From a virus (lineage: Duplodnaviria; Caudoviricetes), in IMG/VR virus record IMGVR_UViG_3300005077_000208, positions 1 through 25,132 of that record: 25,132 nucleotides of DNA; one strand, given 5' to 3'. Under the pieces are notes generated by a model. It made no database searches, was not told the origin of the DNA, and saw only the letters and a program-made list of their open reading frames with translations. Made by a program: the position numbers and the translations under genes. Positions 3,113 through 24,497 of this stretch are shown here, in pieces; within the stretch, counting starts at the first letter, position 1, and the number at the start of each line of letters is the position of its first letter.

Positions 3113-3646
3113 TTATCCGGCCCTTTCGCTCATTGTGTCAAGAACGAGTTTATAAGTTCCCAAATCATTTTGCTGTCCCTGCAATGCCAACCCTACCTTT
3201 GTTCCTAATGTGCTTTCGCCTTGAGATATGCTCCCTTGAACCCTGCCTAAAGCCGTAGATAGTTCCCCTAATCTCTGTTGTAGTGGAAGGCTTTTGGCCG
3301 ATACCATGCCTTGTCTTTGAGCTTCCGTAACGATACTGTTTCGCGTTGTAGCTGACACATTAGGTTCAACCCTTTTTAAAGCATCTTCTACATTTCCTAT
3401 CGCCCCCTGTATTGTAGATGAGGTTTTACGAAGCTGTGGCAGTCCGGCGGCCCCCTCAAGCTGAGTGTAAATATCTAAAGGTTTTGCCTGTGATTGCTGG
3501 TAGTTGATATATGACTGTAAAGCTCTGTCTACTAAAGGATTAGTCGTTCCAGTCATAAAATCACTTAAAGATCCGCCTATGTCATTTAAGGAGCCGTAGC
3601 CAACATTCTGCTGATCTGTAAGAGCCTGATCCAAATTGTCTGCCAT
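3113..3646 (-). CDS. Gln/Ser-rich helical putative internal virion (ejection) protein, possibly frameshifted
   Basis: ORF composition, position between the tail hub and the SLT protein, and its own leaderless promoter. Confidence 0.55.
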   Translation of the reverse strand: MADNLDQALTDQQNVGYGSLNDIGGSLSDFMTGTTNPLVDRALQSYINYQQSQAKPLDIYTQLEGAAGLPQLRKTSSTIQGAIGNVEDALKRVEPNVSATTRNSIVTEAQRQGMVSAKSLPLQQRLGELSTALGRVQGSISQGESTLGTKVGLALQGQQNDLGTYKLVLDTMSERAG

Positions 3647-7635: not shown

Positions 7636-8568
7636 TTAGGTTATTTCTGAGGGGAAAAAGTTATGATTTCTTATTCCACCTCTTCTCAATTTTCTTTGAC
7701 CTTTAATAACCTTATTAGTTGATCTATGTCCCCATCTTTCCTTCGCGGCGGCTAAACCTGTCCCTGCATATTTGCCTGTTCCCATAAACTTAGCCTGATA
7801 ATCGTCTGACTTGTCGCTATCCACTTTAGGACCGGCAAAATAGCTCATACAGGTAAAATATACGGGAAGAATATGGGTTGAGGAGGGTAAGTTAGGCATC
7901 TCGCCTATGGTGTAGCTTTCAGATCCGGCAGCAATAGCCGATCCTTGATATTCTTTTGAAAGCGTCAGGGTTGTTGTCGAGTCAACAGTCTCGATCTTAT
8001 ACCATCGTGGGTAATCGTCAATCTTAAAATATCTGCCTTCAAGCACGCTAGTCCAATCCGGAGAATTGTCTCCCGTTACCTCAGTCCCTTCGTTATCCAA
8101 TGTTAAAATGGTTCCCTGGATATAATCATCGGCTGACAGGTCTTTCCCCTCCGCCTCATATCTTAACGTCATTACATAATCAGCAGTTGAAGGGGTAGGA
8201 TAAAGTTCATAAGTTTCGTGCCTGAAAAATATATGAGTGGGGTAATCTGCTGTATTAGGATAGGATTTTAGCTCTTGCCAAAGGCTTTCATCCTTTATCT
8301 CATTTTCAGCTAAAATATGGTGTCTTACGTCATCTGAGCCTGTTACATAAAAATCCTTCATTCTTATATAATCGTCAGGAGTCGGGTAGGTATCAACATC
8401 TTCCTCTGTCAAATCAGTCCTTGTCTCCTCAGTGTAAAACGAGCCTAATGTATCCTCGACAAAATGCAGTCCTATATTCAAATGTTGCTTAAAAAATTCA
8501 AGGGCATCACTGCTGTCGTCATTGCAGTATTTTTGACTTAATTCATACTGATCCTGGAAGCTTAACAT
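7636..8568 (-). CDS. Head-to-tail adaptor protein
   Basis: Helical N-terminus, Y-x-x-P-x-D motif, YELYPTPS…Y motif, an inserted beta domain, and position before the tail hub. Confidence 0.65.
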   Translation of the reverse strand: MLSFQDQYELSQKYCNDDSSDALEFFKQHLNIGLHFVEDTLGSFYTEETRTDLTEEDVDTYPTPDDYIRMKDFYVTGSDDVRHHILAENEIKDESLWQELKSYPNTADYPTHIFFRHETYELYPTPSTADYVMTLRYEAEGKDLSADDYIQGTILTLDNEGTEVTGDNSPDWTSVLEGRYFKIDDYPRWYKIETVDSTTTLTLSKEYQGSAIAAGSESYTIGEMPNLPSSTHILPVYFTCMSYFAGPKVDSDKSDDYQAKFMGTGKYAGTGLAAAKERWGHRSTNKVIKGQRKLRRGGIRNHNFFPSEIT

Positions 8569-8576
8569 ATTTATAT

Positions 8577-8613
8577 AAAAAAACCCACCTAATTGGCGGG
8601 TATTCTGTACCTC
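8577..8613 (-). promoter_or_regulatory. Leader element copy 1: operator hairpin GAGGTACAGAATACCC overlapping terminator-like stem ACCCGCC-AATTA-GGTGGGT plus U-tract
   Basis: Direct reading. TATATT (8628-8623) lies 9 nt upstream, and ATG 8568 lies 8 nt after the U-tract. Confidence 0.75.
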
Positions 8614-8635
8614 CTAAATATCAATATACTACATT

Positions 8636-8833
8636 TCAGTTAATTTCTCCACTTTTTTTGCCGTACTCAAGACTGTCATCAATAAAATAAATCATCGGTT
8701 TTAAGCCTATTATCACCCCATTTACCTCATCAGTCTCCAGAACAGTAAAAATCTTTATTCTGTATTTAGTAAGAAGCTGCCTCAACTCTTTTTCAAACCG
8801 GCCTTTTCTTTCTCCGAAATCGCCAGTTGACAT
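8636..8833 (-). CDS. Hypothetical protein (65 aa), apparent paralogue of 10479-10721
   Basis: Shared F-x-x-EL-x-x-LL-x-K…G-(I/L)-x-P pattern. Confidence 0.6.
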   Translation of the reverse strand: MSTGDFGERKGRFEKELRQLLTKYRIKIFTVLETDEVNGVIIGLKPMIYFIDDSLEYGKKSGEIN

Positions 8834-8840
8834 AGGAAGA

Positions 8841-9836
8841 TTAACTTAGCAACTCATCCATTGATTTGGAATGGATGTCTGAATATTTTTTTGGAGGGAG
8901 TGTTTTCCCGCCAGGAGCGCCACCGCCACCCACCTTTGAGGCAAGTTTCTTTTGATCTATTACTGTATCTTTTTTCTCTTCCGTCTTTTCCCCTGGTTTG
9001 ATAGGTACGATCTTTCTGTCTTTTACCTGCCAAAGAGGTGTTCCAGGCTTATATCCATGCCCACCCCCAAATTCAGGTGCCACCTTAATCCATAATTCAT
9101 AAGCTTCTTTCATTGAAGTAAGGCCATTTGACGCTCCCATATTAGTTATCAAGTAATCTACAAGCTTTCCCTCCTGAGTTTTAGGATCAGCCACTTTTCC
9201 CTCCTTAGCCATTGTCTGCATTTCCTTGTCAAACTCTTTATTCTGGTTTTCGGCAATCTGTTTTTCTTCCTTTTCCAACTCCCTTAAAGCTTCCCTTATT
9301 TGAGGGGCTGTTCCTTTTAAAATTATATCCGGATGGTCTTGGAGATGCCTAACCACTTTAGTAAACGCATCGTTCCAGTCTTTAGGCTCCCTTTCTTTAG
9401 GGATAAACAATTTTCCCTCCTCATTTTTTTCGTACTTGATAAATTCGATTATCTTTTTTTCCTCTTCTTTTTCGTCTTTTTTAGTTCCGCCGGCATCTTT
9501 TATTTCCTTTTTCTTTTGTTCCACATACTCATCAATCTCTTTCTGTGTACTTAGCTTCTTCATCTCAAGCTTTTCCTCATCGGTTGGCTCATTTTTCTTT
9601 TTTTCCTCTTCCTCTTCCTTTTGTTTTGTCGCGGCCTCAGCCTCTTCTTTTTCCCTAGCTTCTTTTTCTTCAGGGGTTTCTGCCGGCTTTTCCTCAGGAA
9701 AGCCCTCCTCGGTAAGTTTTTCAAAGCGGACCTTTTCCTCATCATTCCATTTGTCCTTATTATCAAGGATTGTTTTTATATCATCAGGACGCAGTTCATC
9801 ATTGCCTTTAATTACGGCTAGTTCAAATTCATCCAT
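8841..9836 (-). CDS. Putative capsid scaffolding protein
   Basis: Highly charged Glu/Lys-rich, helical and low-complexity, with a Gly linker and a short C-terminal helix (…SKSMDELLS). Confidence 0.5.
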   Translation of the reverse strand: MDEFELAVIKGNDELRPDDIKTILDNKDKWNDEEKVRFEKLTEEGFPEEKPAETPEEKEAREKEEAEAATKQKEEEEEKKKNEPTDEEKLEMKKLSTQKEIDEYVEQKKKEIKDAGGTKKDEKEEEKKIIEFIKYEKNEEGKLFIPKEREPKDWNDAFTKVVRHLQDHPDIILKGTAPQIREALRELEKEEKQIAENQNKEFDKEMQTMAKEGKVADPKTQEGKLVDYLITNMGASNGLTSMKEAYELWIKVAPEFGGGHGYKPGTPLWQVKDRKIVPIKPGEKTEEKKDTVIDQKKLASKVGGGGAPGGKTLPPKKYSDIHSKSMDELLS

Positions 9837-10479
9837 TTATAGGGTAATCAAACTCTTTAACAAGCTCATCTACTGTCATATTTTCCACCTTGGCCATTGT
9901 TTTCTCATCAAGCTCCATGCCTAATTTACCTTTCGCGTAATCATATAGCTGTTGCCTGGTGACTACTTTAGGAGTGGTATCTGCCGGTTTTAAACCTTCA
10001 AACTCATCATCTTTATCTTCCGGCAATACAGTTTTATCTTCCTCATGGGTGACTATTTTTTCTTCCCTGGGAGCCTCATCAGGTGTAGGAGGGGCGAGAT
10101 TAGCTTTATTTTTGTTTCTTTTCAAATATTTATCTAAGTCAGACGGCCTGTTATATTTGTCTATATTCTCTATAGCCTGCCTTTCGGGAGATTTCATTTC
10201 AGGCGGATTTATTACATCAACATTAAGGATAATTTGAGACTGCAATTTTTCCCTTTCATTTATCTTGGCTGTGCTTATTTTGCGCTTGGACAGGATTTTA
10301 TCAATAAGATGTTTTACGGCCAATCGCGCTATGAAGTAAGGGATAACGACAACCTGGCCCGCCTGTAGTTGTCTTACATAAGCGTTATTGGGATCTGAGA
10401 TATTATATTCAATTACAAATTCTTCATTGTCAATATTTTTAATTGTCACCATGTCATAAAGACTTTGTTTGTTTTCCAT
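9829..10479 (-). CDS. Hypothetical phage protein with a small C-terminal helical domain
   Basis: 216-aa ORF translationally coupled on both sides. Confidence 0.6.
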   Translation of the reverse strand: MENKQSLYDMVTIKNIDNEEFVIEYNISDPNNAYVRQLQAGQVVVIPYFIARLAVKHLIDKILSKRKISTAKINEREKLQSQIILNVDVINPPEMKSPERQAIENIDKYNRPSDLDKYLKRNKNKANLAPPTPDEAPREEKIVTHEEDKTVLPEDKDDEFEGLKPADTTPKVVTRQQLYDYAKGKLGMELDEKTMAKVENMTVDELVKEFDYPING

Positions 10480-10721
10480 TAGCTTGTTGCCTTTTCTATT
10501 TCGGTTTTAGGCTTTTCCTCAGGAACTTTTAAAGGGCTGTTATCGACTAATTTAAAAATACGGAGTTCCGGCGTGATACCGCTTGAAGTTACTCTTAGTG
10601 CAGGTTGGAATACAAGACTTCTTTTTTTCAAAAGCGCGTCAAGTTCATTTTGAAATTCCGTTAATTCTTGGGGAGTTGGAGTGACTGCTTTTTTTGCGGG
10701 TGCTTGTGGTTTGTTGTCCAT
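10479..10721 (-). CDS. Hypothetical protein (80 aa)
   Basis: ORF directly after a promoter and operator hairpin; TAATG overlap with the next gene. Confidence 0.6.
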   Translation of the reverse strand: MDNKPQAPAKKAVTPTPQELTEFQNELDALLKKRSLVFQPALRVTSSGITPELRIFKLVDNSPLKVPEEKPKTEIEKATS

Positions 10722-10722
10722 A

Positions 10723-10777
10723 GGGTTTTCTATAACCTCAACATAAAAAGAATAAACTATATTTTAGATTTTGTCAA
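10723..10777 (-). promoter_or_regulatory. sigma70 promoter plus leader element copy 2 (GAGGTTATAGAAAACCC, 10739-10723) 1 nt before the ATG
   Basis: TTGACA (10777-10772), 17 nt, TATTCT (10754-10749), 9 nt, hairpin G-A-GGTT-ATAGAA-AACC-C, T, ATG. Confidence 0.7.
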
Positions 10778-10784
10778 GTGTAAT

Positions 10785-12341
10785 TCAAACTCTAAAATGT
10801 GAAGGAAACGGACTGACAATATCCAAATAAAGCTTGAAACACAAATCTCTGTCGCTATCATCCCCCCATGATCCCGAAACATTTGCGGAGAAATTACCTG
10901 GATGGGTTGGAGAGCTATTGTCATCCCCAACTATAAGGGCATTACCCTCGCTGCCGTTGTCATATTCAACTGAAAGGACATAATGAGTGCCGCTTTCAAG
11001 GATAAACTGCTGACCTGAGCTGAAATTAAATGTTTCAAGAGATAACGTGGGGTATTCTGACGAAAGAGTGGTAATATCGAAAGGATCGGAAACTGCTAGG
11101 GGAGCGCCTGTGGGGACGCTTGAAGTGCCGAAAGTTCCCGAATGGGCATAAATTTTGGCGTAAATGTTTCCAGTTGGAGATCCGAGCTTGCCTAAATAAA
11201 ACTGGGCGGCAGTAAACTTTGTCCCGATACCGGTAAATGACTGTCCCACTGCTAAATAATAATATCCTACAGTTTCAGTATAATTAGAATTACTTTCATC
11301 ATAACTGTCAATCATTGTATATTTGGGCGCATCCTCAAAAAGCCACCCATCATTATTGTCTGTATCTACTGAATGGCTACCCGCATACCATGTAGCTCCA
11401 CCTGTAGCATTGGAGTTTGAGATGTCAAGGTAATCACAACTGACTATTCCTGAAGATTTAGAGAGGGTGAATTGGGTTGGGGTTTCTGCATCAGTACTAT
11501 TTAAAGTAATTAGATTTCCAGCTGTAAAACTTGTAATAGTTTGAGTTTTATCAGCTTCAAATAAAACTAATAATCCAGCATCTATTTTAATATTATTGAA
11601 TGTATTGTCTCCGAAAACACTAACTTGGTCTGCCGCTATCCAAAGATTGTAATATGTTTTACCTCCATATAAAGAATTCTCAGAACCAGTAAATTTTATC
11701 GTTGATGTTTCGGATGTTATCGTTACAACTTCACCATTTAATTCTTCAATATACCAACCATCTAATTCCGATTCTGTTATCTCCCACGTCCCACTACCCA
11801 TAATAACTGTGGGGGTATATCCTGTATCGGCATAGAAGGAGAAGTGATTAGCAGTTACATTGTGGTCATTGGCATCAAAAGTACCGCTTTGTTGGTAAAA
11901 CAACCCTGTTATTCCTAAATCGTCCTGCAAAGTCCATGTTCCTTCTCCTTCTATACTAATATAACCACCAGTTAAAGTCGCACCAGCAATAGTAATTGTT
12001 TCTTCCGAATTAGAACTAAGAGCAATTCCTCCTCCACCAGTTATTAAATAAGTTAAACCACTTTCAAGAATTAAACTTCCAGAACAATTCAAACCATTAT
12101 TTTCACCTGATATCGTAAAAGTATGCCCTGATGAACAAGTAAAATCGTGAGATTGAATTGGTCCTCCACTATCAAGAGTTATAGTTCCTCCTCCTCCAAA
12201 TCCTGAATTAGAGTCTATAAAGACATCATCTGAGGAAGTAGGCAAATTTCCATTGCCAGGAGAACCGCCACTAGAAGTAGCCCAATGGTTGTCATCATCT
12301 GACCAGTCACCAGACGACCCCACCCAATATCGGTTTGCCAT
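10785..12341 (-). CDS. Beta-rich virion fibre/decoration protein (beta-solenoid N region plus C-terminal beta-sandwich)
   Basis: N-terminal ANRYWVG…W…P…DDVFID motif, Gly/Thr/Ser-rich beta repeats, and a C-terminal VGQSFTG…FYL…GSPTG domain. Confidence 0.55.
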   Translation of the reverse strand: MANRYWVGSSGDWSDDDNHWATSSGGSPGNGNLPTSSDDVFIDSNSGFGGGGTITLDSGGPIQSHDFTCSSGHTFTISGENNGLNCSGSLILESGLTYLITGGGGIALSSNSEETITIAGATLTGGYISIEGEGTWTLQDDLGITGLFYQQSGTFDANDHNVTANHFSFYADTGYTPTVIMGSGTWEITESELDGWYIEELNGEVVTITSETSTIKFTGSENSLYGGKTYYNLWIAADQVSVFGDNTFNNIKIDAGLLVLFEADKTQTITSFTAGNLITLNSTDAETPTQFTLSKSSGIVSCDYLDISNSNATGGATWYAGSHSVDTDNNDGWLFEDAPKYTMIDSYDESNSNYTETVGYYYLAVGQSFTGIGTKFTAAQFYLGKLGSPTGNIYAKIYAHSGTFGTSSVPTGAPLAVSDPFDITTLSSEYPTLSLETFNFSSGQQFILESGTHYVLSVEYDNGSEGNALIVGDDNSSPTHPGNFSANVSGSWGDDSDRDLCFKLYLDIVSPFPSHFRV

Positions 12342-13183
12342 TATATAAATATCACATCCGAATTATCAGCTAACTCGGCAATTTTTAACCATGTTTTCTT
12401 GTTTTTAGGCCAACTCATCTCGGCCATAAGAATATGGGCTTTCTTCATGTTCACGTTGATCTCAAGGGCTTTAAGGCATGATTCCCTAGCCTCGCCACCT
12501 CGGTTTGTATACCATAAACACTTGGCACGGTAGTAATATCCTTCGGCTTTTTCAGGGAGCCATGTTGACACTTTAAGATAGGCGTCAAATGCCTCTATCG
12601 CCTCGTTGTACTTTTTAAGATCAAGGTATTCTTTTCCTAAATAAAATAGAGTCCTTGGCGTCTTATCCATAGATTTTAGGATTTTAAGGTTCCGTTCGGG
12701 ATCTTTTTTGTGATTGACACTATATCCGCACTCACGCTCAATGTCCACGTTCTCGTTTTCCAAGATATTAAGATTTTCGTGGACCTTGCCAACCCAAAAG
12801 ATATCTGGGTCGTTTTTGAATATGACCTTGCGCCAATGCCAGTTTTTGCCTGACTTGCTCTTAATTGAAAGCGCCCTTTTCTTGGCCTTGCCTATGATCT
12901 CTTTGACCTTTGAGATGGGAGTTAAAAGTCTATGGTCAGCGTCAATGGATAAGATAAAATCCCCCGTAGCCTTACCCTTAGCATGGTTTCTAGCCTCAGC
13001 GAAATTATCATTCCATTTGTAGTCGGTAAAGACCTTATCAGTGTACTTTTTGGCTATTTCAATCGTCTTGTCAGTAGAACCCGTATCACATACGATTATC
13101 TCGTCAGCCCCCTTTATGGAGTCAAGGCAATGGGTAAGTATTTCCTCTTCGTTTTTGACTATTAAAACACATGAAAGGCGCAT
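12341..13183 (-). CDS. Family 2 glycosyltransferase with C-terminal TPR repeats
   Basis: IVKNEE, DEIIVCDTGSTDKT, FAEARN, SIDAD (DxD) and VHE motifs; TPR-like LFYLGKEY…EAIEAF…YYYRAKCL. Confidence 0.9.
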   Translation of the reverse strand: MRLSCVLIVKNEEEILTHCLDSIKGADEIIVCDTGSTDKTIEIAKKYTDKVFTDYKWNDNFAEARNHAKGKATGDFILSIDADHRLLTPISKVKEIIGKAKKRALSIKSKSGKNWHWRKVIFKNDPDIFWVGKVHENLNILENENVDIERECGYSVNHKKDPERNLKILKSMDKTPRTLFYLGKEYLDLKKYNEAIEAFDAYLKVSTWLPEKAEGYYYRAKCLWYTNRGGEARESCLKALEINVNMKKAHILMAEMSWPKNKKTWLKIAELADNSDVIFI

Positions 13184-13188
13184 ATTTT

Positions 13189-13197
13189 ATTATAGCA
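13189..13197 (-). promoter_or_regulatory. Extended -10 promoter giving a leaderless glycosyltransferase mRNA
   Basis: TGcTATAAT, 5 nt, ATG (13183). A TTGACA at 13227-13222 is 27 nt away, too far to be its -35. Confidence 0.6.
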
Positions 13198-13231
13198 TTT
13201 TCTTATAGAGTTATAATTTGTTGTCAAATTT

Positions 13232-15127
<1,896 letters not shown>

Positions 15128-15135
15128 TTTATTAC

Positions 15136-15186
15136 AAAAAAAGCCCACCTAACTGGTGGGCATACTGTGCCTCTATTATCAGTTTA
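15136..15186 (-). promoter_or_regulatory. Leader element copy 3: operator hairpin GAGGCACAGTATGCCC (15173-15158) overlapping stem GCCCACC-AGTTA-GGTGGGC plus U7
   Basis: Direct reading. -10-like TAAACT (15186-15181) lies 7 nt upstream, and ATG 15127 lies 8 nt after the U-tract. Confidence 0.75.
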
Positions 15187-15190
15187 CTAT

Positions 15191-16114
15191 TTATTTTCTT
15201 AAACTTCCATACCGTATTCTTTCTGACTGTTTTTGGACTACTTCAATCCTCTTTTCCAAAACAGCGCGATCCGTTTTTAATTGCTTTTCTTTGATACTAA
15301 CCGTCTTTTCTCGGTCCTTCAATATAGCCAATTGCCTATCAACGCCTTTCAGTTTATTGTCAATATCCGTCCTTATCTTATCTATCTTTTCCTTTTGGTT
15401 TTTGACATATACGTCCACGTTAAATTTATCATCAAGAGCTTTTTCCTTTATGTTTTCCGCGTCTTTTAAGGCTTTATCGGTCTTATTTGATTTTTCTTCC
15501 ATTTCCTTGCTTAAAGCTTCCAACTTTGAATAATCATTATTTATACCCCCCCTGAGTATATTTATCTGGATTTTATCTATGTTATTGGCTTCGGTTATTT
15601 GCTTTAGCTCCTCTTCTTTATTTTTTAATTTAGAGGCTATGCTTTCCAGCCTCCTAGCCTTTCCATGAAGCTCGACTCCTTTTTCTTTCAATGCCTCTTT
15701 TTCTTTATTTATCTGTTTCTGATGCTCCTTAAATTTGTTATTAACATACTCATCGCTGTTTTCCCTTAAAGTCTGTATTTCTATATTCAGTTTACTTAAA
15801 TTTACCCTTTTCTCTTCCAATTGCCTATCAAGATCATATACCTGTTTTTTGACTATTAAATAATCGCCCCTTGCTTGCTTTAGGGCATTATTGCCGCGAT
15901 CCAGGGCATCTTGTAACTTCTTGGTCTTGTTTTCAATCAAATTAAGCTTTATTTGGGCAGTATTTAATGTGTTCATTGAAGGAGATCGGGCAGACATATC
16001 CATTAACTTATCTTTCCTTACATTATTAAGATGCTCTAAGTCAGAAAGAAGTTTTTTCTTTTTCCTTTCAAGTAGCTTTACCTCTATGGCTATGGGTTCC
16101 TCCTGGGGATACAT
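15191..16114 (-). CDS. Long coiled-coil hypothetical protein
   Basis: Lys/Glu/Leu heptad character over almost the full length. Confidence 0.65.
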   Translation of the reverse strand: MYPQEEPIAIEVKLLERKKKKLLSDLEHLNNVRKDKLMDMSARSPSMNTLNTAQIKLNLIENKTKKLQDALDRGNNALKQARGDYLIVKKQVYDLDRQLEEKRVNLSKLNIEIQTLRENSDEYVNNKFKEHQKQINKEKEALKEKGVELHGKARRLESIASKLKNKEEELKQITEANNIDKIQINILRGGINNDYSKLEALSKEMEEKSNKTDKALKDAENIKEKALDDKFNVDVYVKNQKEKIDKIRTDIDNKLKGVDRQLAILKDREKTVSIKEKQLKTDRAVLEKRIEVVQKQSERIRYGSLRK

Positions 16115-16131
16115 AGATAAGGTATCCTAAA

Positions 16132-16635
16132 TTAGTTTGATGACGGCTCTACATTTCCATTACTAGAGATAGGATTCCAGATGCAATAAAAATCAATTAC
16201 TCCGGCTGTGGTATTGGCTCCCCCCGATACCGTAAGAATAATATCCGTTCCGTTTAAAAGGTACTCAGGTAAGTTTCCGCTGGCATCGTTTTCAAGACCT
16301 AGTATGTAGGCTGTAGCCGGATTGGCATTATTAAGCCAAATCTCGCCTGCGTCAATGTCCGTATCGGTTTCTTGAGGTAAAAATATCGCCGTATTCCCGC
16401 TAATTCCAACCTCTAAAGTAGCTCCGCCGGCCAGTAAAGTAGTGCAGACTCCTAAAACTTGAGCCTTGACTAGTCCTGTAACCTCAAATATTGCCCCTCC
16501 ATCTAAAGCTCCTCCATCATCCCCCCATGCATCAGTAGTCCCTCCTGCGAAGGTAACAGTTTTTTTGGTAATAAGACCTAAGTTTGAGATAGCCTTGTAG
16601 TTGGCATCTACATATTGAGCCTTTGATGTTTTCAT
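16132..16635 (-). CDS. Putative capsid decoration/structural beta-sandwich protein
   Basis: Gly/Thr/Ala-rich beta pattern within the head cluster. Confidence 0.5.
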   Translation of the reverse strand: MKTSKAQYVDANYKAISNLGLITKKTVTFAGGTTDAWGDDGGALDGGAIFEVTGLVKAQVLGVCTTLLAGGATLEVGISGNTAIFLPQETDTDIDAGEIWLNNANPATAYILGLENDASGNLPEYLLNGTDIILTVSGGANTTAGVIDFYCIWNPISSNGNVEPSSN

Positions 16636-16636
16636 A

Positions 16637-16876
16637 TTATTTTTTCAAGCTAACTTTTATATTCTTAACTCCACCATTTTCTTCGTAAATTTTTCTTATC
16701 AAGGCCATCAATTCCATAAAATACCCTAAAGTGGGGTGATTCAATGGCTCTGAAGTGCTTTCGATTTTATAGCTGGCCTTCTCATCTGTATCAAATTCAC
16801 ACTCCCCCTTAATAAAATCAGATCCATCTTTATTTATTTCAAACTTGAATGTATGGGTAAACTGATCTATGGGCAT
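16637..16876 (-). CDS. Hypothetical protein (79 aa) with its own leaderless promoter
   Basis: ORF plus a promoter immediately upstream. Confidence 0.6.
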   Translation of the reverse strand: MPIDQFTHTFKFEINKDGSDFIKGECEFDTDEKASYKIESTSEPLNHPTLGYFMELMALIRKIYEENGGVKNIKVSLKK

Positions 16877-16881
16877 ACTAC

Positions 16882-16911
16882 ATTATGACACTTTAAAGGA
16901 GGAAAAGTCAA
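16882..16911 (-). promoter_or_regulatory. sigma70 promoter giving a leaderless mRNA
   Basis: TTGACT (16911-16906), 18 nt ending TGt, CATAAT (16887-16882), 5 nt, ATG 16876. Confidence 0.6.
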
Positions 16912-16924
16912 GAGGATCAAGCTA

Positions 16925-17905
16925 TTAAGCATTATTAACCGCCAATCCTGCATAAGTGCCAGGATTAGTGTCAATAACCTGAGGGAACCAGACATGGCCT
17001 GAGGCTGTACCTTCAATATCATCACAGCCTACAAAAGTATTATAACCATCAAAAATCATATTTGCCGTTTGAGTCTGGGCTGAAATATCAATCGCGGCAG
17101 TAATTTTATCCGCCGCATTAGTCCACTGAGCTATAAAAGTATTTCCCTTAAATAAATTCCATCCTGAACATCCATCCGCCCCTGCTGACTTAATAAATAA
17201 AGCCCCGACATTATCAGGCTGAATATTAAAGATACAATTTTCCCAAACATTTTTAGATGATGAAGAATTAAATCCAAGACAAGCATTAGCAGCTGATCTT
17301 GGGGCTGTATCTAGTCCAAATGCACAGCCTTCAAAAGTATTTTCAACAGCACCCGTCATATTAAGATCCCTTCCCGTAGCATCGTCTCCTGCAGTCGCTG
17401 TACCAAGACCTGCAAAATGAACATTTGAGAAATAATTTCTGTCTCCGGTAAGTTCTACCAAAACATCAACCGAATCCTGGAATGAGGCAAACTGTATATT
17501 TGAAAAAATACAACCTCTAGCTGAAATAGTAAATGCTGGATCAACTGAATCCGTAGTCATTAAAACTCTCGATCTTTGTGAAAGTCTAACAGGACCGGTA
17601 TTACCGATAAGGTGACAATAATCCTTGCTCCATGTAACTGCGGCTGTTTCGGAAGTTCCCGCCGTACTGCCAGGGACTAGGATTGCAACATCGTGATTAT
17701 AAGCAGTCATCGCATCATGGGCTGCGGCAATTGTAGCAAAGGCCCTATTAACGCTTTTCCCGTTATTTGCTGTATCTGAACCGTTGGCAGGATCAATATA
17801 AAAAATGTTGCCAATATAAGGAAGCCCAAGCATTGTTGCCAAATTCTCTGGAAAAACTTTATATCCCTGCTTCCAAGCTCTTTGTACGTCAGCAATATTT
17901 TTCAT
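16925..17905 (-). CDS. Right-handed beta-helix (pectin lyase-like) virion protein
   Basis: FYIDPANGSD…N-G-x-S…AFATIAAA start motif and repeated N-x-F-x-(G/N)C-x-F coils. Confidence 0.7.
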   Translation of the reverse strand: MKNIADVQRAWKQGYKVFPENLATMLGLPYIGNIFYIDPANGSDTANNGKSVNRAFATIAAAHDAMTAYNHDVAILVPGSTAGTSETAAVTWSKDYCHLIGNTGPVRLSQRSRVLMTTDSVDPAFTISARGCIFSNIQFASFQDSVDVLVELTGDRNYFSNVHFAGLGTATAGDDATGRDLNMTGAVENTFEGCAFGLDTAPRSAANACLGFNSSSSKNVWENCIFNIQPDNVGALFIKSAGADGCSGWNLFKGNTFIAQWTNAADKITAAIDISAQTQTANMIFDGYNTFVGCDDIEGTASGHVWFPQVIDTNPGTYAGLAVNNA

Positions 17906-17908
17906 AAT

Positions 17909-18049
17909 TTATCTTTTCTTGGCTTGCTCGGCCTCTTTAACTAAATGATAATCAGGATGATCTGGGTTTTGTCTTAAAAAATTAAGATTATATCCTTTAT
18001 ACATTTTGTCTGCATTTTTAACTTCTTTTTTATCTTTATTTTTTGCCAT
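17909..18049 (-). CDS. 46-aa basic hypothetical protein (MAKNKDKKEVKNADKMYKGYNLNFLRQNPDHPDYHLVKEAEQAKKR)
   Basis: Hand translation; fills the gap and stops 3 nt before the next ATG. Confidence 0.65.
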   Translation of the reverse strand: MAKNKDKKEVKNADKMYKGYNLNFLRQNPDHPDYHLVKEAEQAKKR

Positions 18050-18053
18050 GTTT

Positions 18054-18107
18054 AAAAAAAGCCTCTATACCTCTGCCTACTATAACTTCAAGCAAAGGCC
18101 GAGGCTT
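18054..18107 (-). terminator. Long bulged hairpin plus U-tract after the capsid/decoration genes
   Basis: AAGCCTC…GAGGCTT outer stem, GCCTTTGCTT/AGGCAGAGGT inner stem with G-U pairs, and a U7 run. Confidence 0.6.
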
Positions 18108-18122
18108 ATTGAACAAATAACC

Positions 18123-18848
18123 TTAATCAATCTGCAAATGTACCAATCCCATCGTGCTGTCAACCGATACGACTTCTCTTGCAAATCCGATGACAATTCC
18201 ACCTTCTCCACCGGACTGGGGTTTGACTGAGCCTGCAACTGCGGCTGACGGTCCAACTCCCGTAACTCCGTTTGATGTATTGGTTCCGGTATCAAATAGA
18301 CATGGACAATCTCCGCCTGATTGAATCCAGCCGTAGTAGGAAGCTGTCATTGCGTATAAAGCTACTCCTACCGCGCCACCCGTTTGGGTAGTTATAGGAT
18401 ATTGGATAACTCCGTTATAAGGATTCTTTCTTACCGTAACCTGTGACGTAGCGTCAACCAGGGCGATTTTAAGCGGTCTATCAACTTTAAAGGTACATAC
18501 TCCGCTTGTACTGGACTGCACGTCATGGCTGACAATTCTAAAGTGCTGTCCGATTCCCGTTGAGGACTCAACGTAAAGGTGTCCGTTGGCAAACAATCCT
18601 GCGGTAACTGCTGTTCCACCCAATGTAACCGAGATTTCATCATCACCTATTGCAGGAGTACCTGATACGGCCATTGATCTGAAGTTGGTATCTTCCGCCG
18701 GTTCCTGAAGCAAGTTGCCTGTAACTAAGGCAGCAGATGCGCCATTTTTTACATAGCGGTATTTATCACCCTCTGGAGAGATATATAATTCCCCAACTTT
18801 GTGCTGTGCGTATTGGCTTTCAGTAAATAAATCTTGTAGTGGTCCCAT
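18123..18848 (-). CDS. Capsid decoration/cement protein
   Basis: Immediately after the capsid gene; G-x-x-YRYVK and YYGWIQ-x-GG motifs typical of such proteins. Confidence 0.6.
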   Translation of the reverse strand: MGPLQDLFTESQYAQHKVGELYISPEGDKYRYVKNGASAALVTGNLLQEPAEDTNFRSMAVSGTPAIGDDEISVTLGGTAVTAGLFANGHLYVESSTGIGQHFRIVSHDVQSSTSGVCTFKVDRPLKIALVDATSQVTVRKNPYNGVIQYPITTQTGGAVGVALYAMTASYYGWIQSGGDCPCLFDTGTNTSNGVTGVGPSAAVAGSVKPQSGGEGGIVIGFAREVVSVDSTMGLVHLQID

Positions 18849-18850
18849 AA

Positions 18851-19921
18851 TTAGACTCCTAATACTCCAGTCAAGACTCCTTGTCTCCGAGGCTGGAAGG
18901 TAACCAAGTTACCCAACATGTAAATATGTGCGACTGTTCCGTAAACATCCGTAGGTTGCAAGAAACCCGTCCATTGGAAACCGGTATTGTCTGTCGGAGC
19001 CTCATCATAAACTCCCTCGACAGTTGATCCGGCTCCCAAGGCAATAGATTTCAAATCCGGATCTTTGATACCGTACCAATCTATATAGTTTTCATTGACA
19101 GCGTAAAAATATTGACTCGTACATTTCTCATCAGCTACCCAGGGGATGCCCTTGATAACCATTGAGGTAAATCCCTGTGCGCCTTTAAGTGCGGCGGCAG
19201 GAACAACACCCTTGCTTCTTCGTGTAACCATCGGCAGTCCGTTTGCATCGTAGTTGGCCTGAACTATTGGAGTAAGCAGGCTTTCCCCGTCATTCCAAAC
19301 TGTCTCATCGGAAATAAAGATAGTTGGTCTTTGGCGTGAGGCTGAACCTCCGGAAACCGCCGAGACTAGGGTTGAGATTTTAGTAAGATCAATCGTCCCT
19401 CCTGAAGCCGTTTTAGTACCGGCAAGGGAAGGATATGTGGTTTTTGAAAGTCCACCTACAGTGTCAGAGACCGTTCCATCATCGACTAAGTATTTAAGAC
19501 CGTAGAAATCTTTTGAGTCGTTGCCGGTCCCATCGGCATAGAACATTGTTCCAATATCATCCAAAGCGTCCTCTTGGGACGATTCGAGTTCAACTCTTAC
19601 TAAGCTAATAACCTGGGCATCAGTCTGGTTGACAACCCTTTCAAGTCCTGGGATTGCCACCGGAATTTCGTAACCGCGAAGATCATATTGCATCATTCTA
19701 CGAGTATCTGCAGTAGCGGTAGAATGTTTATCCATGCCGGAGAATGATCCACCATGAGTATTTTTGAATAGTTTAACAGGCTTTTTCAAGGTTTCACCGG
19801 ACCATTTAAGTCCGTTTGACATAAAACGGAAGGTAGAAAAGTTATCGGAAAGCAAATTGTCAACAACTTTCGGGAGGATTTTATCCTGGGTTATTGTGGT
19901 AACTCTGTTTGAAAAATACAT
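18851..19921 (-). CDS. Major capsid protein (probable start MYFSNRV at 19921, 356 aa)
   Basis: Size, position after the portal, HK97-type features (…FYADGTGN…FYGL…, IKGIPWVADEKC, terminal PRRQGVLTGV). The ORF-track start at 19960 lies inside the leader hairpin. Confidence 0.85.
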   Translation of the reverse strand: MYFSNRVTTITQDKILPKVVDNLLSDNFSTFRFMSNGLKWSGETLKKPVKLFKNTHGGSFSGMDKHSTATADTRRMMQYDLRGYEIPVAIPGLERVVNQTDAQVISLVRVELESSQEDALDDIGTMFYADGTGNDSKDFYGLKYLVDDGTVSDTVGGLSKTTYPSLAGTKTASGGTIDLTKISTLVSAVSGGSASRQRPTIFISDETVWNDGESLLTPIVQANYDANGLPMVTRRSKGVVPAAALKGAQGFTSMVIKGIPWVADEKCTSQYFYAVNENYIDWYGIKDPDLKSIALGAGSTVEGVYDEAPTDNTGFQWTGFLQPTDVYGTVAHIYMLGNLVTFQPRRQGVLTGVLGV

Positions 19922-19928
19922 ATAATTT

Positions 19929-20006
19929 AAAAAAAAGCCCACCCAACTTCGGGTGAGCATTCTGTGCTTCTAATTAAAAAGTATCAGATAGAAAACTGTT
20001 TGTCAA
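19929..20006 (-). promoter_or_regulatory. Capsid promoter plus leader element copy 4: GAAGCACAGAATGCTC (19970-19955) overlapping stem GCTCACCC-GAAGTT-GGGTGGGC plus U8
   Basis: TTGACA (20006-20001), 17 nt ending TGa, TACTTT (19983-19978), 7 nt, operator, terminator-like stem, 7 nt, ATG. Confidence 0.8.
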
Positions 20007-20019
20007 GGGGTATTTTGAA

Positions 20020-20172
20020 CTAGCCTCGCATTTTCTTTAACCTGTCCTTCATCGCCTGCCTCTTTACATTCATCGCTATCGCAACCGCTTGGGCTTCCGG
20101 CTTGCCCGCATGCCTTTCCTTTGCGATATTTTCCGAAACTGTTTTTTTGCTATATCCTTTTTTAAGTGGCAT
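20020..20172 (-). CDS. 50-aa basic phage protein ([50 protein letters not shown])
   Basis: Hand translation. I recognise MPLKKG-S…SENI…QAVAIA as a common small protein of phage head modules. Confidence 0.8.
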
Positions 20173-20176
20173 ATAT

Positions 20177-20470
20177 TTAAGATTTTTCGGATAAGGCGAC
20201 TAGTGCCTCTCCTAAATTTTTAAGAGCTTTTTTTAAAGATATATTTCCATCCATGTACTCGCTTGACGCGGCAGATACCAACTCCTGACAAGGTTCCCAT
20301 TTCTGATACCGTTCATCGCGCTTATCATCCATTTCCTCATCTTTAAGTGCCGCCTCAACTACTAAGTTGTCATCGGGCAATGATTCCAAGCGTTTAATCA
20401 TCGCATTATGTTTCGCCTCTAGTCTCTTTTTTTCCTTGGCATCGCTTGCGGCCAATGTGTTATATCTCAT
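20177..20470 (-). CDS. Hypothetical protein (97 aa)
   Basis: ATGA overlap with the portal stop. Confidence 0.6.
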
Positions 20471-22572
20471 AGTTGAGGTTGTAAAAATTGTAATCTTGCT
20501 CCTAAACCTTCCTGGGGAACTGCCGGCTGTTCACCGCCAGGTGCTATAGGAGGATTTTCCGGTTGGTCTGGTATTGGGGCAGGAGCCTCCCCGCCTGGAC
20601 TTGTAGCACTGCTTGCATCTGCGGCCTCGCCTGATACTGCCGCCTTTTGTTTTATGGCTATTGCAACCTGATCCTTTGTTTTCTTTATAAATTCAATATG
20701 TCTTTGCTTTATATCAGGAGACAATTCTTGAAAAATATTACTATCAAGGAAGCTTGCATATGTATCAAGGTATTCTTTTGTCGGATTTTCCCTTATTGGT
20801 ATCTCCCTGCCTCGGCTTACTAAGGATATGTCATTAACCGCGTCCCTATCTATGCTGTCAGGACCAACCCCCAATATCTCCTCCAAATACCTGTCCATTG
20901 AGAAGTTGTAATATATTATTCTTTTTGCAAATTCTTTAGGATTACGCTTACCCAACCCTTCCGCGATAGACAAAGGATCGAGTATGCTTATGGCCTGGAC
21001 AGTCTCATTCCTTTCCGCAACTTCATCTTTGGGCAATAATGTTCCGGCTTTTACCCTTATCGCGACACCATCCTCAATCTTATCGTTTGAAAACTCCATA
21101 AAGGCAGTATAACCGTCAGGCCCCGTATATTTAACCATTGTCGGCTCGTCCCAAAACACCTTCATCATTTGAGTAATTCCCCTGTAAAGCTTTCCCCCGC
21201 CGGTTTCAAGACTGTCAACTAAGGTCTGAGTCCTGCTCATGTTTGACCTTTGGGCTATTATCTCCTGGCCTAAAGTCTTAGCCCCTGACTGTTCTCCGCG
21301 AAGAGGGGCATTTGTTCCGAAAATATTATCTATCTCCTGACGGGCATCATTCTTGTCCCTGATAACAAACTCCGACAATTCATTTCTAGGCAACCTTGAT
21401 GCGGCCCTGGTGACATCTCCGCCAACCATTACCTTTTCATCGGGATCGCCGATAAGCTTTGCCACATCCTCCTCATCAATTTTATCGGAATCAAATATCA
21501 GTCCTGAATTAGCCTGGTCTGCATTAACGTCAATCTGGTGTCCTCTTTTATATAAAATATCCTGCTGGGATAATGCCTGCTCCGTAAGGGAAGTATCATC
21601 AATAAGGAATCTTCCTGCGTTTAAGTGGTTAAAGAAAATATAAGGCTTCATCGGCCTGTCAAAGAAGTTGTTATAAACCAAGTTTCCTTCCTCGTCTTTT
21701 GAATACTCGTCATAGTTATAATGGGGATTTTTCATTTTATCCAAGACCAACTCTTTATACTTCCATGTTACGCCTTCCTTTTTGTTGCCTTTGGAGTCAA
21801 AATAGGAAAACCAAAGCTCAATATATCCTACCTGTGTTGACAATGCCGGAGTCTGATTGTCATGAGTAGCTGAGAATAACCTTTTTATATCATCTGACTT
21901 ATCGGGGAACTTCAAAGCCAACTCCTCAATAGTCGCGGCCTGATACTCTCCTATCAAAGGCACATCCTCACTTTTTTTAAGAGGGGTTTTCTGCTCAATA
22001 ACCACTCTTGTCGGCCTTAAAGCCTCAACAGCAATCCCACCTGATCGGCTTCCATCATCTTTAACCCTTCCGATCATTCCATCCCAATAATACTTCATTA
22101 CACCAAGCCTCATCCCCATCAGAAGATGACGGGCCACCATAGCCAGCTTGTCTTTTATGTATAAATCCTCATATTGGGCCAGTAGAACATTTTTTACATA
22201 TCCTGCCAGTTCCCTTGATGAGTCGGTATCATTCGCCTCAGTTACAACCGGCTCAAGGATTTGACTGGTGACAAGAGGGATAAGCGTTTCAATAGCAGTA
22301 AAAATCCTGTTATTTCTATATTCAATTTGAAAGTCATATAAATCGGTGACATATTCCCGACTGTCAAGCCATACCTTTTCATTCTGTTCGCGCTTTTTTT
22401 TCAAATCAAGTTCCGTGTCCCAATAAGCCTCACTGTCACTTATCCTCGAACTGATTATTTCCGCTATTTTCTCGTCATCAAGACCTAACGCAAGAGGGCC
22501 GTATGTAGAGGTAGTTAAAACATCCTCTGTATTTTCGTTGTCCCTGCCTTGTAAACTATTTGGAAAATCCAT
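20467..22572 (-). CDS. Portal protein (P22/podovirus-like)
   Basis: 701 aa after the terminase; NRIFTAIE…P, PYIFF and LRGE…TLG motifs; Pro-rich C-terminal tail. Confidence 0.85.
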   Translation of the reverse strand: MDFPNSLQGRDNENTEDVLTTSTYGPLALGLDDEKIAEIISSRISDSEAYWDTELDLKKKREQNEKVWLDSREYVTDLYDFQIEYRNNRIFTAIETLIPLVTSQILEPVVTEANDTDSSRELAGYVKNVLLAQYEDLYIKDKLAMVARHLLMGMRLGVMKYYWDGMIGRVKDDGSRSGGIAVEALRPTRVVIEQKTPLKKSEDVPLIGEYQAATIEELALKFPDKSDDIKRLFSATHDNQTPALSTQVGYIELWFSYFDSKGNKKEGVTWKYKELVLDKMKNPHYNYDEYSKDEEGNLVYNNFFDRPMKPYIFFNHLNAGRFLIDDTSLTEQALSQQDILYKRGHQIDVNADQANSGLIFDSDKIDEEDVAKLIGDPDEKVMVGGDVTRAASRLPRNELSEFVIRDKNDARQEIDNIFGTNAPLRGEQSGAKTLGQEIIAQRSNMSRTQTLVDSLETGGGKLYRGITQMMKVFWDEPTMVKYTGPDGYTAFMEFSNDKIEDGVAIRVKAGTLLPKDEVAERNETVQAISILDPLSIAEGLGKRNPKEFAKRIIYYNFSMDRYLEEILGVGPDSIDRDAVNDISLVSRGREIPIRENPTKEYLDTYASFLDSNIFQELSPDIKQRHIEFIKKTKDQVAIAIKQKAAVSGEAADASSATSPGGEAPAPIPDQPENPPIAPGGEQPAVPQEGLGARLQFLQPQL

Positions 22573-22574
22573 AA

Positions 22575-22817
22575 TTATAAAAAGACATAAATTGCCTTAC
22601 ACCGTGAACACCTTACCTCATGCCCCAACCTCTCCTCGACAACCTTACCTAAATATATCAATTCAACCGCCTGATGGTGTTGCATGACAATAAGCCCGCA
22701 ATATATACATCTTACATTTTTTTTAACAGCCGTTGCCTCTTTATTTAATATTACCAAAACGTGAGGTAAATTGCTGTTGTCCGGAACTGATACAAATTTT
22801 TCCTCTTCCTGATTCAT
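22575..22817 (-). CDS. Mu Com-like C4 zinc-ribbon protein
   Basis: VRCIYCG…HEVRCSRCKA matches the Com pattern (IRCxxC…EIRCPRCK). Confidence 0.7.
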   Translation of the reverse strand: MNQEEEKFVSVPDNSNLPHVLVILNKEATAVKKNVRCIYCGLIVMQHHQAVELIYLGKVVEERLGHEVRCSRCKAIYVFL

Positions 22818-24430
22818 CTTTTTTTCCTCCTTGTTGCAAGTTGAACACGTCTTACGACATCTGAAAGGTCTAGTGCAGGCATTGTCTGATCCTCGTTTAT
22901 TCTAGGATGTTTTTCTTCCATTTTTCTTTTAGCGGCTGGAACGACTACTCCGCCCTGTGTCAATGTTTTTTGTAACGCTATATACCAGTAAACAGTTGCA
23001 AAGGCGAAATGGTCCGCCCTTCCCTCTATCGTTTCCCAAGTCGGGATAACTATTCCCAGATTATTTTCCTTGGTAGTTCGATAAAGTTGCCCCCAATGTA
23101 AAATATACTCTTCCAAATCAGTCAATGTCAAATTAAACCAAATATCCTGGGCCAGGATATTTGCCACTACCTCATCAATTATTCTTGTCCTATCGCTGTA
23201 AACTATGCCACGCTTATCCTGCTCGCCCCACCTTATCACCTCCCTCATCTTGCGGTCAGTATCAAAATAGTGTCCGAATACTTTTCCAGGATAATTTTTT
23301 ATCAGCCTTTTTGGGATATTGGGGTATGGCATCATGTCTATTACCATATATGCACCGTACCTATTCCTTAAATCCTCAATCTCCTCCCAACTGTCAGTAA
23401 CCCCGACTTTAAATATCCCGTACTTATTTCCTACCACATAATGTTTCAAAACCCCGACATCAACACCTATGGCAACATCAGTCATCGGATTTGAAGATGG
23501 ATCGAGGACATTTATAATATCTTTCCGCGTTACCGTATAATCCTTTGAGACATACGGCTGGCCTAATGTAAAGTTATGGAAAAAAGCGGGATCACGCTTA
23601 CTGTCCTCTATTATTTTTGATGCCGGTATCCAGGGAGCCATCATTTGACTTATCCAATAGCCTGATATATCAGACTTTCTTTTATATACCCATCTTCCGT
23701 ACCTGCGGGCATCATCGGGCAAGTCTCTATGGCATTTTGCACAGATATATTTTTCCGTTTCCATGTTAATATTTTCAGGCCATCTCAAATACCATTCATA
23801 GTTGCAATGGGGACATTTGACGAACCAATGCTTTTTATCCGATTTCTGCCACCGGTCATCAATCCCCTTTCCTGGTATTGAAGGGTTTGACAACTGCCAA
23901 ACAAAACCTAAATCCGGCCTGGTACGTTTAGCCTCATCAAGACGGGAACGATAGGTAGTAAGGACCGATTGTTTTGAGCGGTCTATCTCATCGTTAATTA
24001 GAAAATGGGCTGAGATTGAAATAGCGGCTGTTTCCTCCCAAGAACCACGGAAATACAAGAACCTATCGCCTATGCTTTTTAAGGCTGTGCTGTCGGTCTT
24101 GCCCATCATTGAGGATATTGCCGGATTGCTGTTAATTAAAGGATCTACCTTAGGAGTAACGAAATCCTTGACGATAGATCGAGAGGGTAGAGTGTATATT
24201 CCGTTAGCTTTCCTGTATTTTGCAAGATGTATTGATTTTAATATTGTGCAGGTTGAAAGGCCAATCTGGGCCGCCTTCATTATCGCCTGTTCTAAAGCGT
24301 AATCCAGGTAAATATCCCTTAAAAAGAAATGGTCATAAAATTCTATTCTTGTTTGGTTTTCGTTTACCAGCTTGTTATATTCAACGAAGGCGAGGGGGTT
24401 TATTGACTGTAAATCATCCGGTTTTAGCAT
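22814..24430 (-). CDS. terL: Terminase large subunit (GpA-like)
   Basis: Walker A-like MKAAQIGLST, Walker B LINDEID, SNPS, CPHC/CAKC zinc motif, nuclease GVDVG and DHFAFA. Confidence 0.9.
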   Translation of the reverse strand: MLKPDDLQSINPLAFVEYNKLVNENQTRIEFYDHFFLRDIYLDYALEQAIMKAAQIGLSTCTILKSIHLAKYRKANGIYTLPSRSIVKDFVTPKVDPLINSNPAISSMMGKTDSTALKSIGDRFLYFRGSWEETAAISISAHFLINDEIDRSKQSVLTTYRSRLDEAKRTRPDLGFVWQLSNPSIPGKGIDDRWQKSDKKHWFVKCPHCNYEWYLRWPENINMETEKYICAKCHRDLPDDARRYGRWVYKRKSDISGYWISQMMAPWIPASKIIEDSKRDPAFFHNFTLGQPYVSKDYTVTRKDIINVLDPSSNPMTDVAIGVDVGVLKHYVVGNKYGIFKVGVTDSWEEIEDLRNRYGAYMVIDMMPYPNIPKRLIKNYPGKVFGHYFDTDRKMREVIRWGEQDKRGIVYSDRTRIIDEVVANILAQDIWFNLTLTDLEEYILHWGQLYRTTKENNLGIVIPTWETIEGRADHFAFATVYWYIALQKTLTQGGVVVPAAKRKMEEKHPRINEDQTMPALDLSDVVRRVQLATRRKKR

Positions 24431-24434
24431 ATTT

Positions 24435-24497
24435 GAAGCTTCTAAGCTTTCTAACTACCGATAGTCTAGTGTAGCAGATTTTCAGTCTAATATTCAA
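24435..24497 (-). promoter_or_regulatory. Probable terminase promoter plus leader element copy 5 (GAAAGCTTAGAAGCTTC, 24451-24435) 4 nt before the ATG
   Basis: TTGAAT (24497-24492), 18 nt ending TGc, TACACT (24473-24468); hairpin G-A-AAGC-TTAGAA-GCTT-C. Confidence 0.6.

Follow-up and report, generated by a model that had tools for sequence, protein, structure and literature searches.

The virus record IMGVR_UViG_3300005077_000208 (Caudoviricetes), analysed over all of its 25,132 bases and called the window below, is a partial genome without the early region, and it covers the morphogenesis region of a podovirus-like phage with all genes on the minus strand. Our subject is a set of five short hairpins with a bulged A in front of its morphogenesis genes, together with a small gene for a zinc-ribbon protein that sits between the terminase large subunit gene (terL) and the portal gene and overlaps the terL stop by 4 nucleotides (nt) (Table 1). 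Profile matches bear out the terminase, capsid, adaptor and collagen-fibre labels that a first, sequence-only reading had given to the genes behind the hairpins. Its label "scaffold cluster" is plausible, the acidic 331-amino-acid (aa) protein of that cluster giving a weak match to a profile of the relatives' pre-capsid proteins (best-domain E 0.013).

A check of the sequence found all five hairpins on the minus strand where they had been proposed, and the same parts recurred in 5/5 copies: a G, a bulged A, a variable stem of 4 base pairs (bp), a short loop (CAGAA, CAGTA, ATAGAA or TTAGAA) and a closing C. A strict pattern matched the minus strand five times and the plus strand not at all, as against a mean of 0.013 and a maximum of 1 in 300 dinucleotide shuffles. 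The significance is overstated, because the pattern was derived from these same copies. With a free loop the excess was small (8 minus-strand and 4 plus-strand matches versus a shuffle mean of 3.1 and a maximum of 9). All five hairpins are intergenic, as had been claimed, given a capsid start at 19921. The start chosen by the open reading frame (ORF) finder, 19960, falls inside hairpin copy 2; the true start is more likely 19921, because homologous capsid ORFs align from there.

With respect to identity, a stem that doubles as a Shine-Dalgarno sequence (GAGG) was rejected, since two copies lack the word and two others have it ahead of the terminator. An iron-responsive element or boxB was rejected as well, the loop being different from the consensus. 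Rfam gave no relevant match for the window (one chance-level hit elsewhere, E 0.7) and nothing at gathering score for 10 related loci. The sequence-only reading had not recognised a described motif, but the shape itself matches a known site, the com site of phage Mu. The native Mu site consists of a G, a bulged A, a 4-bp stem, a 6-nt loop and a C (PMC6483171), as also seen in the Mu sequence record, and the window copies, with their bulged A and short loop, follow the same outline.

What sets three of the copies apart is their overlap with a second structure. The capsid, fibre and adaptor hairpins share their last 4 bases with the beginning of a GC-rich terminator-like stem that is followed by T7-8, so that the 3' arm of the hairpin is the 5' arm of the terminator and the two folds are mutually exclusive. 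The T-runs end 7-8 nt before the start codon, which leaves no space for a second promoter, and expression of these genes therefore needs read-through. In folding predictions, the small stem had a probability of 0.86-0.96 in the nascent piece versus 0.000-0.001 in the full leader, and the hairpin alone was worth -2 to -4 kcal/mol. Three times, a weak predicted antiterminator hairpin overlaps and excludes an intrinsic terminator placed ahead of the first gene and behind its promoter, and in the folding model these leaders are built like an attenuator that is off by default and requires a ligand. The two terminator-less copies lie directly at start codons. For copy 4 a predicted alternative stem buries the AUG and excludes the hairpin, with unpaired values of 0.08/0.06/0.15 for the AUG that rise to 0.95/0.4/0.6 once the hairpin is held, and translational effects at these two copies are likely under the same model.

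Table 1. Coordinates of hairpins, predicted signals and genes in the window, and of two further features in related loci (named in the position column)
Feature	Position	Strand	Basis
Hairpin copy 1, without terminator, 4 nt before terL ATG	24435..24451	-	sequence, pattern scan
Hairpin copy 2, predicted antiterminator, capsid leader	19955..19970	-	sequence, pattern scan, folding
Hairpin copy 3, predicted antiterminator, fibre-cluster leader	15158..15173	-	sequence, pattern scan, folding
Hairpin copy 4, without terminator, 1 nt before ATG of 80-aa gene	10723..10739	-	sequence, pattern scan
Hairpin copy 5, predicted antiterminator, adaptor leader	8598..8613	-	sequence, pattern scan, folding
Intrinsic terminator-like stem (9 bp) + T8, 4 nt common with copy 2	19929..19958	-	
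Intrinsic terminator-like stem (7 bp) + T7, overlaps copy 3	15136..15161	-	
Intrinsic terminator-like stem (7 bp) + T7, overlaps copy 5	8577..8601	-	
Predicted alternative stem (10735-10730 with 10723-10718), buries AUG, excludes copy 4	10718..10735	-	
Predicted sigma-70-type promoter, terL-com-portal operon: TTGAAT, 18 nt, TACACT	24468..24497	-	sequence; outside promoter scanner's list
Predicted capsid promoter: TTGACA, 17 nt, TACTTT	19978..20006	-	sequence
Predicted fibre-cluster promoter: weak -35, -10 TAAACT	15181..15210	-	sequence
Predicted promoter before copy 4: TTGACA, 17 nt, TATTCT	10749..10777	-	scanner + sequence
Predicted adaptor-operon promoter: TGGAGA, 17 nt, TATATT	8623..8651	-	scanner + sequence
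80-aa CxxC..CxxC zinc ribbon, Com-like, proposed RNA-binding regulator	22575..22817	-	profile comparison, AF2 model
Terminase large subunit (terL)	22814..24430	-	PF05876 E 3e-20; phrog_675
P22-like portal	20467..22572	-	domain + PHROG profile matches
Major capsid protein	18851..19921	-	NF033394 above cut-off; phrog_9953
56-aa gene + collagen-repeat fibre reading frames, downstream of copy 3	13232..15127	-	
80/216/331/65-aa gene cluster; acidic 331-aa protein a possible scaffold	8636..10721	-	
SU10-type adaptor, first gene of tail operon	7636..8568	-	PF24175 above cut-off
Slot gene of Com-less relatives, examples	L066:11291-11600; L071:3292-3587; L074, L069, L090, L067, L122		
Second intergenic element, sites	L005 ~11790-11850; L001 ~8560-8660; L007 ~3310-3350; L089 ~16400; L096 ~11810		
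Second intergenic element, sites (continued)	L179 ~8900; L019 ~16200; L028 ~10410; L161 ~6820; L184 ~8070		

A candidate ligand is encoded in the window itself. The zinc-ribbon protein has two CxxC pairs as in a CCCC zinc finger, with C37, C40 and C70 invariant and C73 nearly invariant among 60 homologues, and its family comprises 154 representatives at E <= 0.001. AF2 predicts an all-beta domain for it with good confidence (pLDDT 86). When the 60-member profile was compared with Mu Com by hhalign, it scored 95.4% (E 1.9e-8, 33 columns), a kind of value that can be inflated for short cysteine-rich matches; two other phage zinc ribbons included as controls scored 41% and 6%. The PHROG profiles named translational regulator and gpCom matched weakly in 4/60 and 3/60 family members, respectively. 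Searches with the zinc ribbon returned only unnamed clusters in the ESM Atlas, generic zinc fingers among PDB sequences, and one chance hit by tblastn against named phages. We call the protein Com-like rather than a member of Com, because it does not reach the cut-off of the Com family profile (Pfam PF10122, Zn_ribbon_Com) and because fold searches named nothing. According to PMC6483171, Mu Com is a CCCC zinc finger of 62 aa with a short hairpin of the mom mRNA as its binding site, and it acts as a translational activator.

To follow hairpin and protein beyond the window, relatives were gathered with terL and capsid alignments, since the zinc ribbons varied too much for their alignment to serve as a seed (a single-sequence terL search of viral contigs had found no relative). 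The 239 loci and the window formed 172 clusters. Of these, 63 carry the long zinc ribbon, the window among them; 30 have terL and portal without a strong match; and 79 were unclassifiable and excluded from contrasts. An overlapping G-A hairpin was present in 32/61 leader terminators of the long-ribbon relatives, whereas shuffling of the upstream sequence (1,000 times) gave a mean of 2.9 and a maximum of 10. Five of the 30 loci without a strong match (L062, L063, L072, L073 and L077) have a short Com-like gene in the terL-portal slot; two of these genes pass the PF10122 cut-off (L072 and L073, both loci with the same hairpin), two match below it and one has no match. With a fixed relaxed detector applied to intergenic leaders, the Com-bearing loci gave 43 sense versus 1 antisense matches and the Com-less loci none, and per locus with a capsid gene the count was 31/48 for Com-bearing versus 0/18 for Com-less loci. 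Nearly all Com-less loci in a listing of capsid leaders ran coding sequence straight into the capsid gene, without a leader.

The 46 hairpin instances fell into 17 stem types, and 7/46 used U-G pairs. A test without any pairing criterion for selection pointed in the same direction: TTGAC followed by GA 35-39 nt further on was found in 27/49 capsid leaders, of which 22 fold, while arm permutations (10,000) gave a mean of 10.4 and a maximum of 17, relatedness among leaders being uncorrected. Orthologous leaders with compensatory stems recurred before the capsid, adaptor and portal genes and a 216-aa gene, which bears out the expected conservation in front of orthologous genes, and the T-run recurred across the relatives' leaders. 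Conservation did not extend to every feature. The YAGWA loop, at first taken for a conserved part, proved confined to the window phage and was rejected as a clade-wide feature, since loops differ between phages and tend to be alike among the copies of a single phage (L189 with five, L198 with four). Conservation of a hairpin directly before terL was likewise rejected: of 41 long-ribbon loci, the window alone has a credible one there. Terminator-less hairpins adjoin the start of the 216-aa gene in L096, L179 and L201 (seen by eye; the detector flagged L201 alone). As separate observations, reading by eye shows A-A in place of G-A at the hairpin base in the capsid and adaptor leaders of L167, the terminator of the L085 and L088 capsid leaders likewise appears by eye to pair with the 5' rather than the 3' arm of the hairpin, and leaderless starts precede the 216-aa gene in L180, L089 and L199.

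In the window, the distance from a -10-like hexamer to the hairpin G was 7, 7, 9, 9 and 11 or 16 nt, in line with the 7-16 nt noticed earlier. A perfect TTGACA precedes two copies only (at 20006 and 10777, 36 and 38 nt upstream of the hairpin G), and the -35 is weak for the copies at 15173 and 8613. Among the 46 instances, 28 had TTGAC at a distance of 30-50 nt upstream, as against 3% at random positions; in 18 of the 28 the distance was 36-37 nt. An A preceded the hairpin G in 39 of the 46. This spacing peak places the predicted start of the hairpin at about +1/+2 of the transcript, which agrees with the view that it lies near the mRNA 5' end.

The phage probably infects Patescibacteria, since many terL relatives among genome contigs are labelled as Patescibacteria (the closest, with 57% identity, comes from a 5.7-kb contig in a Paceibacterota bin) and since few starts have a Shine-Dalgarno-like word (7/27 listed starts, with the capsid start taken one codon early). 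PF10122 matched 13 of 401 Patescibacteria genomes, 9 of them above the cut-off, while the long-variant profile gave 1 borderline match in the same 401 genomes. A hairpin with overlapping terminator was found 14-65 nt after the stop codon in 8/13 of these matches and in 6/9 above the cut-off, and at one further locus the hairpin came with no detected terminator. On the antisense strands, the 13 loci together gave 3 hairpin matches. The loops are mostly C..GA, like Mu, and one stem is identical to the window capsid stem. The RNA element is thereby linked to true Com proteins outside the phage clade. Of note, the Com zinc ribbons of L241, L242, L244, L247 and L248 lie within longer frames of 170-320 aa, which in the first three resemble PAS fusions by eye, and the hairpin is clearly downstream in all of these but L244. 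In L246 the gene after the Com gene and its hairpin-terminator starts like what we take to be an ATP-cone protein of the ribonucleotide reductase type.

The position at about +1/+2, the restriction to the sense strand, the compensatory stems, the U-G wobbles and the conservation before orthologous genes support the proposal of the sequence-only reading that the phage has an RNA-level regulon, based on a predicted protein-binding hairpin at the mRNA 5' end. Its notion of an operator needs a division: the protein-binding hairpin is supported, but the capsid, fibre and adaptor copies are predicted antiterminators that overlap terminators. We consider it probable that the five hairpins are RNA sites for the Com-like protein, which would be a site-specific antiterminator for three operons (capsid, fibre and adaptor) and would tune translation at copies 1 and 4. 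Starting from layout, overlap, covariation and co-occurrence, which are read from the sequence, and from a predicted order of folding, we infer the following course. Host RNA polymerase would fire all five promoters, and the three leaders would terminate by default to give short leader RNAs. The unattenuated terL-com-portal operon would meanwhile supply the Com-like protein through the 4-nt overlap with terL. In the nascent RNA the hairpin is predicted to form first and then to be displaced by the terminator; once the protein has accumulated, it would hold the nascent hairpin so that the terminator cannot close, and the capsid, fibre and tail operons would be read through. The outcome would be a delayed late switch for structural genes, and one may speculate that the terminated leaders soak up early protein and so sharpen the threshold. 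With less assurance, binding at copy 4 could free the buried AUG as in Mu mom, and binding at copy 1, 4 nt from the AUG, may damp the output of terminase and Com, with an effect that could go in either direction.

Several results weigh against this interpretation. The terminator-containing fold is predicted to beat the hairpin-held fold by 8-13 kcal/mol, so that the protein would need to win kinetically. Release of the AUG is predicted clearly for copy 4 and partly for L096, and not for the terL copy or for L179 and L201. The co-occurrence of hairpin and protein was weaker in the initial per-locus contrast (19/48 long-ribbon loci versus 2/22 without a strong match), and the five short-Com loci were reassigned to the Com class after hairpins had been noticed in several of them; even with the fixed detector, 17/48 Com-bearing loci had no match. 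In a quick-method terL tree of 56 rows the long-ribbon loci form one clade, and with about 3 label changes overall the co-occurrence rests on few independent events. As to the protein, PF10122 (cut-off 22.9 bits) did not match the window protein and matched 6/60 family members, all below the cut-off (best E 0.0025), and Foldseek with the model found nothing at E <= 0.001 in PDB and BFVD. A covariance model of 17 positions, a check of the kind proposed at the outset, recovered its three training copies, but copies 1 and 4 only at E 2.9/4.3 among 15 hits, and did not find the Mu site, the model being too small. In selection experiments (SELEX, systematic ligand evolution through exponential enrichment) Com preferred GAG..CC cores flanking a variable stem of 3-4 bp and bound a CC(N2-3)GAG loop best, as PMC6483171 describes; such a C...GAG loop is absent from the window, where loops end in AA or TA. 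Finally, PMC3899960 reports that a com stop codon in Pseudomonas syringae left expression of the neighbouring lscB unchanged, which calls for caution in taking com neighbours as targets.

The same points leave some room for an RNA switch of identical design with another ligand, either a phage protein encoded outside the partial genome or a host factor, the zinc ribbon merely travelling with the head module. The phylogenetic confounding of the phage co-occurrence, the early region outside the window and a long zinc ribbon below the Com cut-off all suit this idea. We nevertheless regard it as unlikely, because the same hairpin-terminator follows the true PF10122 genes of Patescibacteria and occurs in the short-Com phages, and because Mu Com binds RNA of such a shape (PMC6483171). 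A little less probable still is that the protein binds but affects only translation or mRNA stability, with the stem and U-run as an inhibitory or protective structure instead of a terminator. Mu Com's role as a translational activator, the terminator-less copies (two in the window, three in relatives), the closeness of the U-runs to the ATG and the fact that terminators in this host group are predicted ones speak for it. In the three leaders, however, a GC-rich stem followed by T7-8 is a textbook intrinsic terminator whose stem stops short of the initiation region and does not take in the AUG, and the T-run is recurrent in relatives.

We give little credit to protein-independent attenuators, in which a fixed competition between hairpin and terminator would set the ratio of structural proteins. 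The predicted early folding of the hairpin would fit, but the hairpin is weak, the invariant G, bulged A and C suggest a recognised shape, default throttling of the capsid gene makes little sense without an on-switch, and all 18 Com-less loci lack the hairpin. Least credible is an element read in DNA, as a cruciform or as a single-stranded hairpin (the latter being the alternative first entertained) or as a promoter operator for a zinc finger or hairpin-reading polymerase. Its place at the promoter and the ability of C4 zinc fingers to bind DNA speak for it, P2 Ogr being a DNA-binding zinc finger and the N4 polymerase a reader of hairpins, but the element is sense-only and downstream of the predicted start, its U-G pairs would be A-C mismatches on the opposite strand, its stems differ within one genome, and the terminator overlap would be left unexplained.

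Other features of these genomes deserve mention. The window also encodes a DUF1064/resolvase-like gene, a glycosyltransferase, a LamG protein and a transglycosylase-bearing protein. Two genes without a hairpin, the 79-aa one and that of the glycosyltransferase (16876-16911 and 13183-13230, minus strand), have their -10 hexamer 5 nt ahead of the ATG, and judging from this arrangement their mRNAs are likely leaderless and outside the regulon. The collagen-fibre coding region (13232-14982, minus strand) is split over two overlapping frames near 14600, a frameshift that may reflect an assembly error or a broken gene, or may be programmed. In the Com-less relatives the terL-portal slot holds another small gene (65-72 aa, no CxxC pairs), and the three of these genes that were scanned gave no Pfam match; in most cases a promoter, an A/C-rich leader resembling CCAAA..ACGGA, a terminator and the portal gene follow, possibly as a second, unrelated antiterminator system. 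A second conserved intergenic element follows the 241-aa gene in relatives, with a stem enclosing TGACGAG..TTCAGG, then AAGG, a CCCT/AGGG terminator and the next gene. It is possibly another structured attenuator, and Rfam had no match for it in L001, L005 and L161. At the equivalent place (18050-18120, minus strand) the window has a different long inverted repeat that ends in T7 just before a 46-aa ORF.

If the antitermination reading is true, phage late-gene timing could be achieved without a phage sigma factor, DNA-binding activator or polymerase-modifying factor, as a small zinc protein and 16-nt hairpins would suffice. It would also offer a testable answer to the role of Com-like genes outside Mu, called unexplored in a 2018 review (PMC6240691), and a look at how phages of Patescibacteria, hosts that are probably uncultured, control their genes; the many diverged protein/hairpin pairs would be candidates for compact orthogonal RNA tethers or transcriptional switches in laboratory strains. 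An evenly balanced conjecture goes further: Com-family zinc ribbons would be mainly hairpin-binding transcription antiterminators, with Mu translation as the special case, and this likely Patescibacteria phage clade would have a multi-operon RNA regulon whose late master regulator is a Com variant with a long insert, one protein opening terminators at several start-proximal sites and setting translation at others, with per-phage loop divergence giving orthogonal protein/RNA pairs. A literature search, mainly of papers open without subscription, turned up no account of antitermination by Com-type proteins or of the phage element.

Among known systems, the leader logic resembles that of BglG, SacY and LicT, in which a protein stabilises a weak leader hairpin, the ribonucleic antiterminator (RAT), that overlaps an intrinsic terminator. 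BglG-type proteins have CAT and PRD domains and control sugar operons through phosphorylation, and the RAT is about 30 nt long with internal loops. The window protein has an unrelated fold and its 16-nt hairpins are smaller; no CAT or PRD domain was found among the scanned proteins of this partial genome, nor a RAT match in Rfam. In lambda, a promoter followed by a terminator (PR'-tR'-Q) gates the late genes, boxB is a small RNA hairpin acting as a cis signal, and Q and N, acting from one or two sites, modify RNA polymerase so that antitermination is processive. The window has instead one hairpin per operon, in three operons physically overlapping its own terminator, which argues for local structural exclusion rather than processive modification. 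The coat operators of MS2 and PP7 are bulged-A hairpins near a start codon bound by the RNA phage coat fold, and, unlike the window system, they come without terminator overlap or zinc ribbon; the MS2 operator and boxB, offered earlier as analogies, give way to Com/mom as the closest model. As in Mu, a small four-cysteine zinc ribbon is found, here with an additional N-terminal strand and ~13 more residues between the cysteine pairs, and a hairpin would be held against a competing fold for late gene control. Three of the five window copies start with GAG and end with CC like the SELEX cores, the other two start with GAA like native Mu, and the predicted AUG-burying stem of copy 4 resembles the translation-inhibition structure of mom. 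Mu, however, has one site, inside com, with a translational output on a DNA-modification gene, whereas the window has five sites at the transcript start, three of them overlapping terminators with a predicted transcriptional output, in front of morphogenesis operons. Altogether, the parts are known from Mu Com and from BglG/RAT-type leaders, and what is probably new is their combination, a Com-like protein and com-like hairpins as a multi-operon late antitermination switch.

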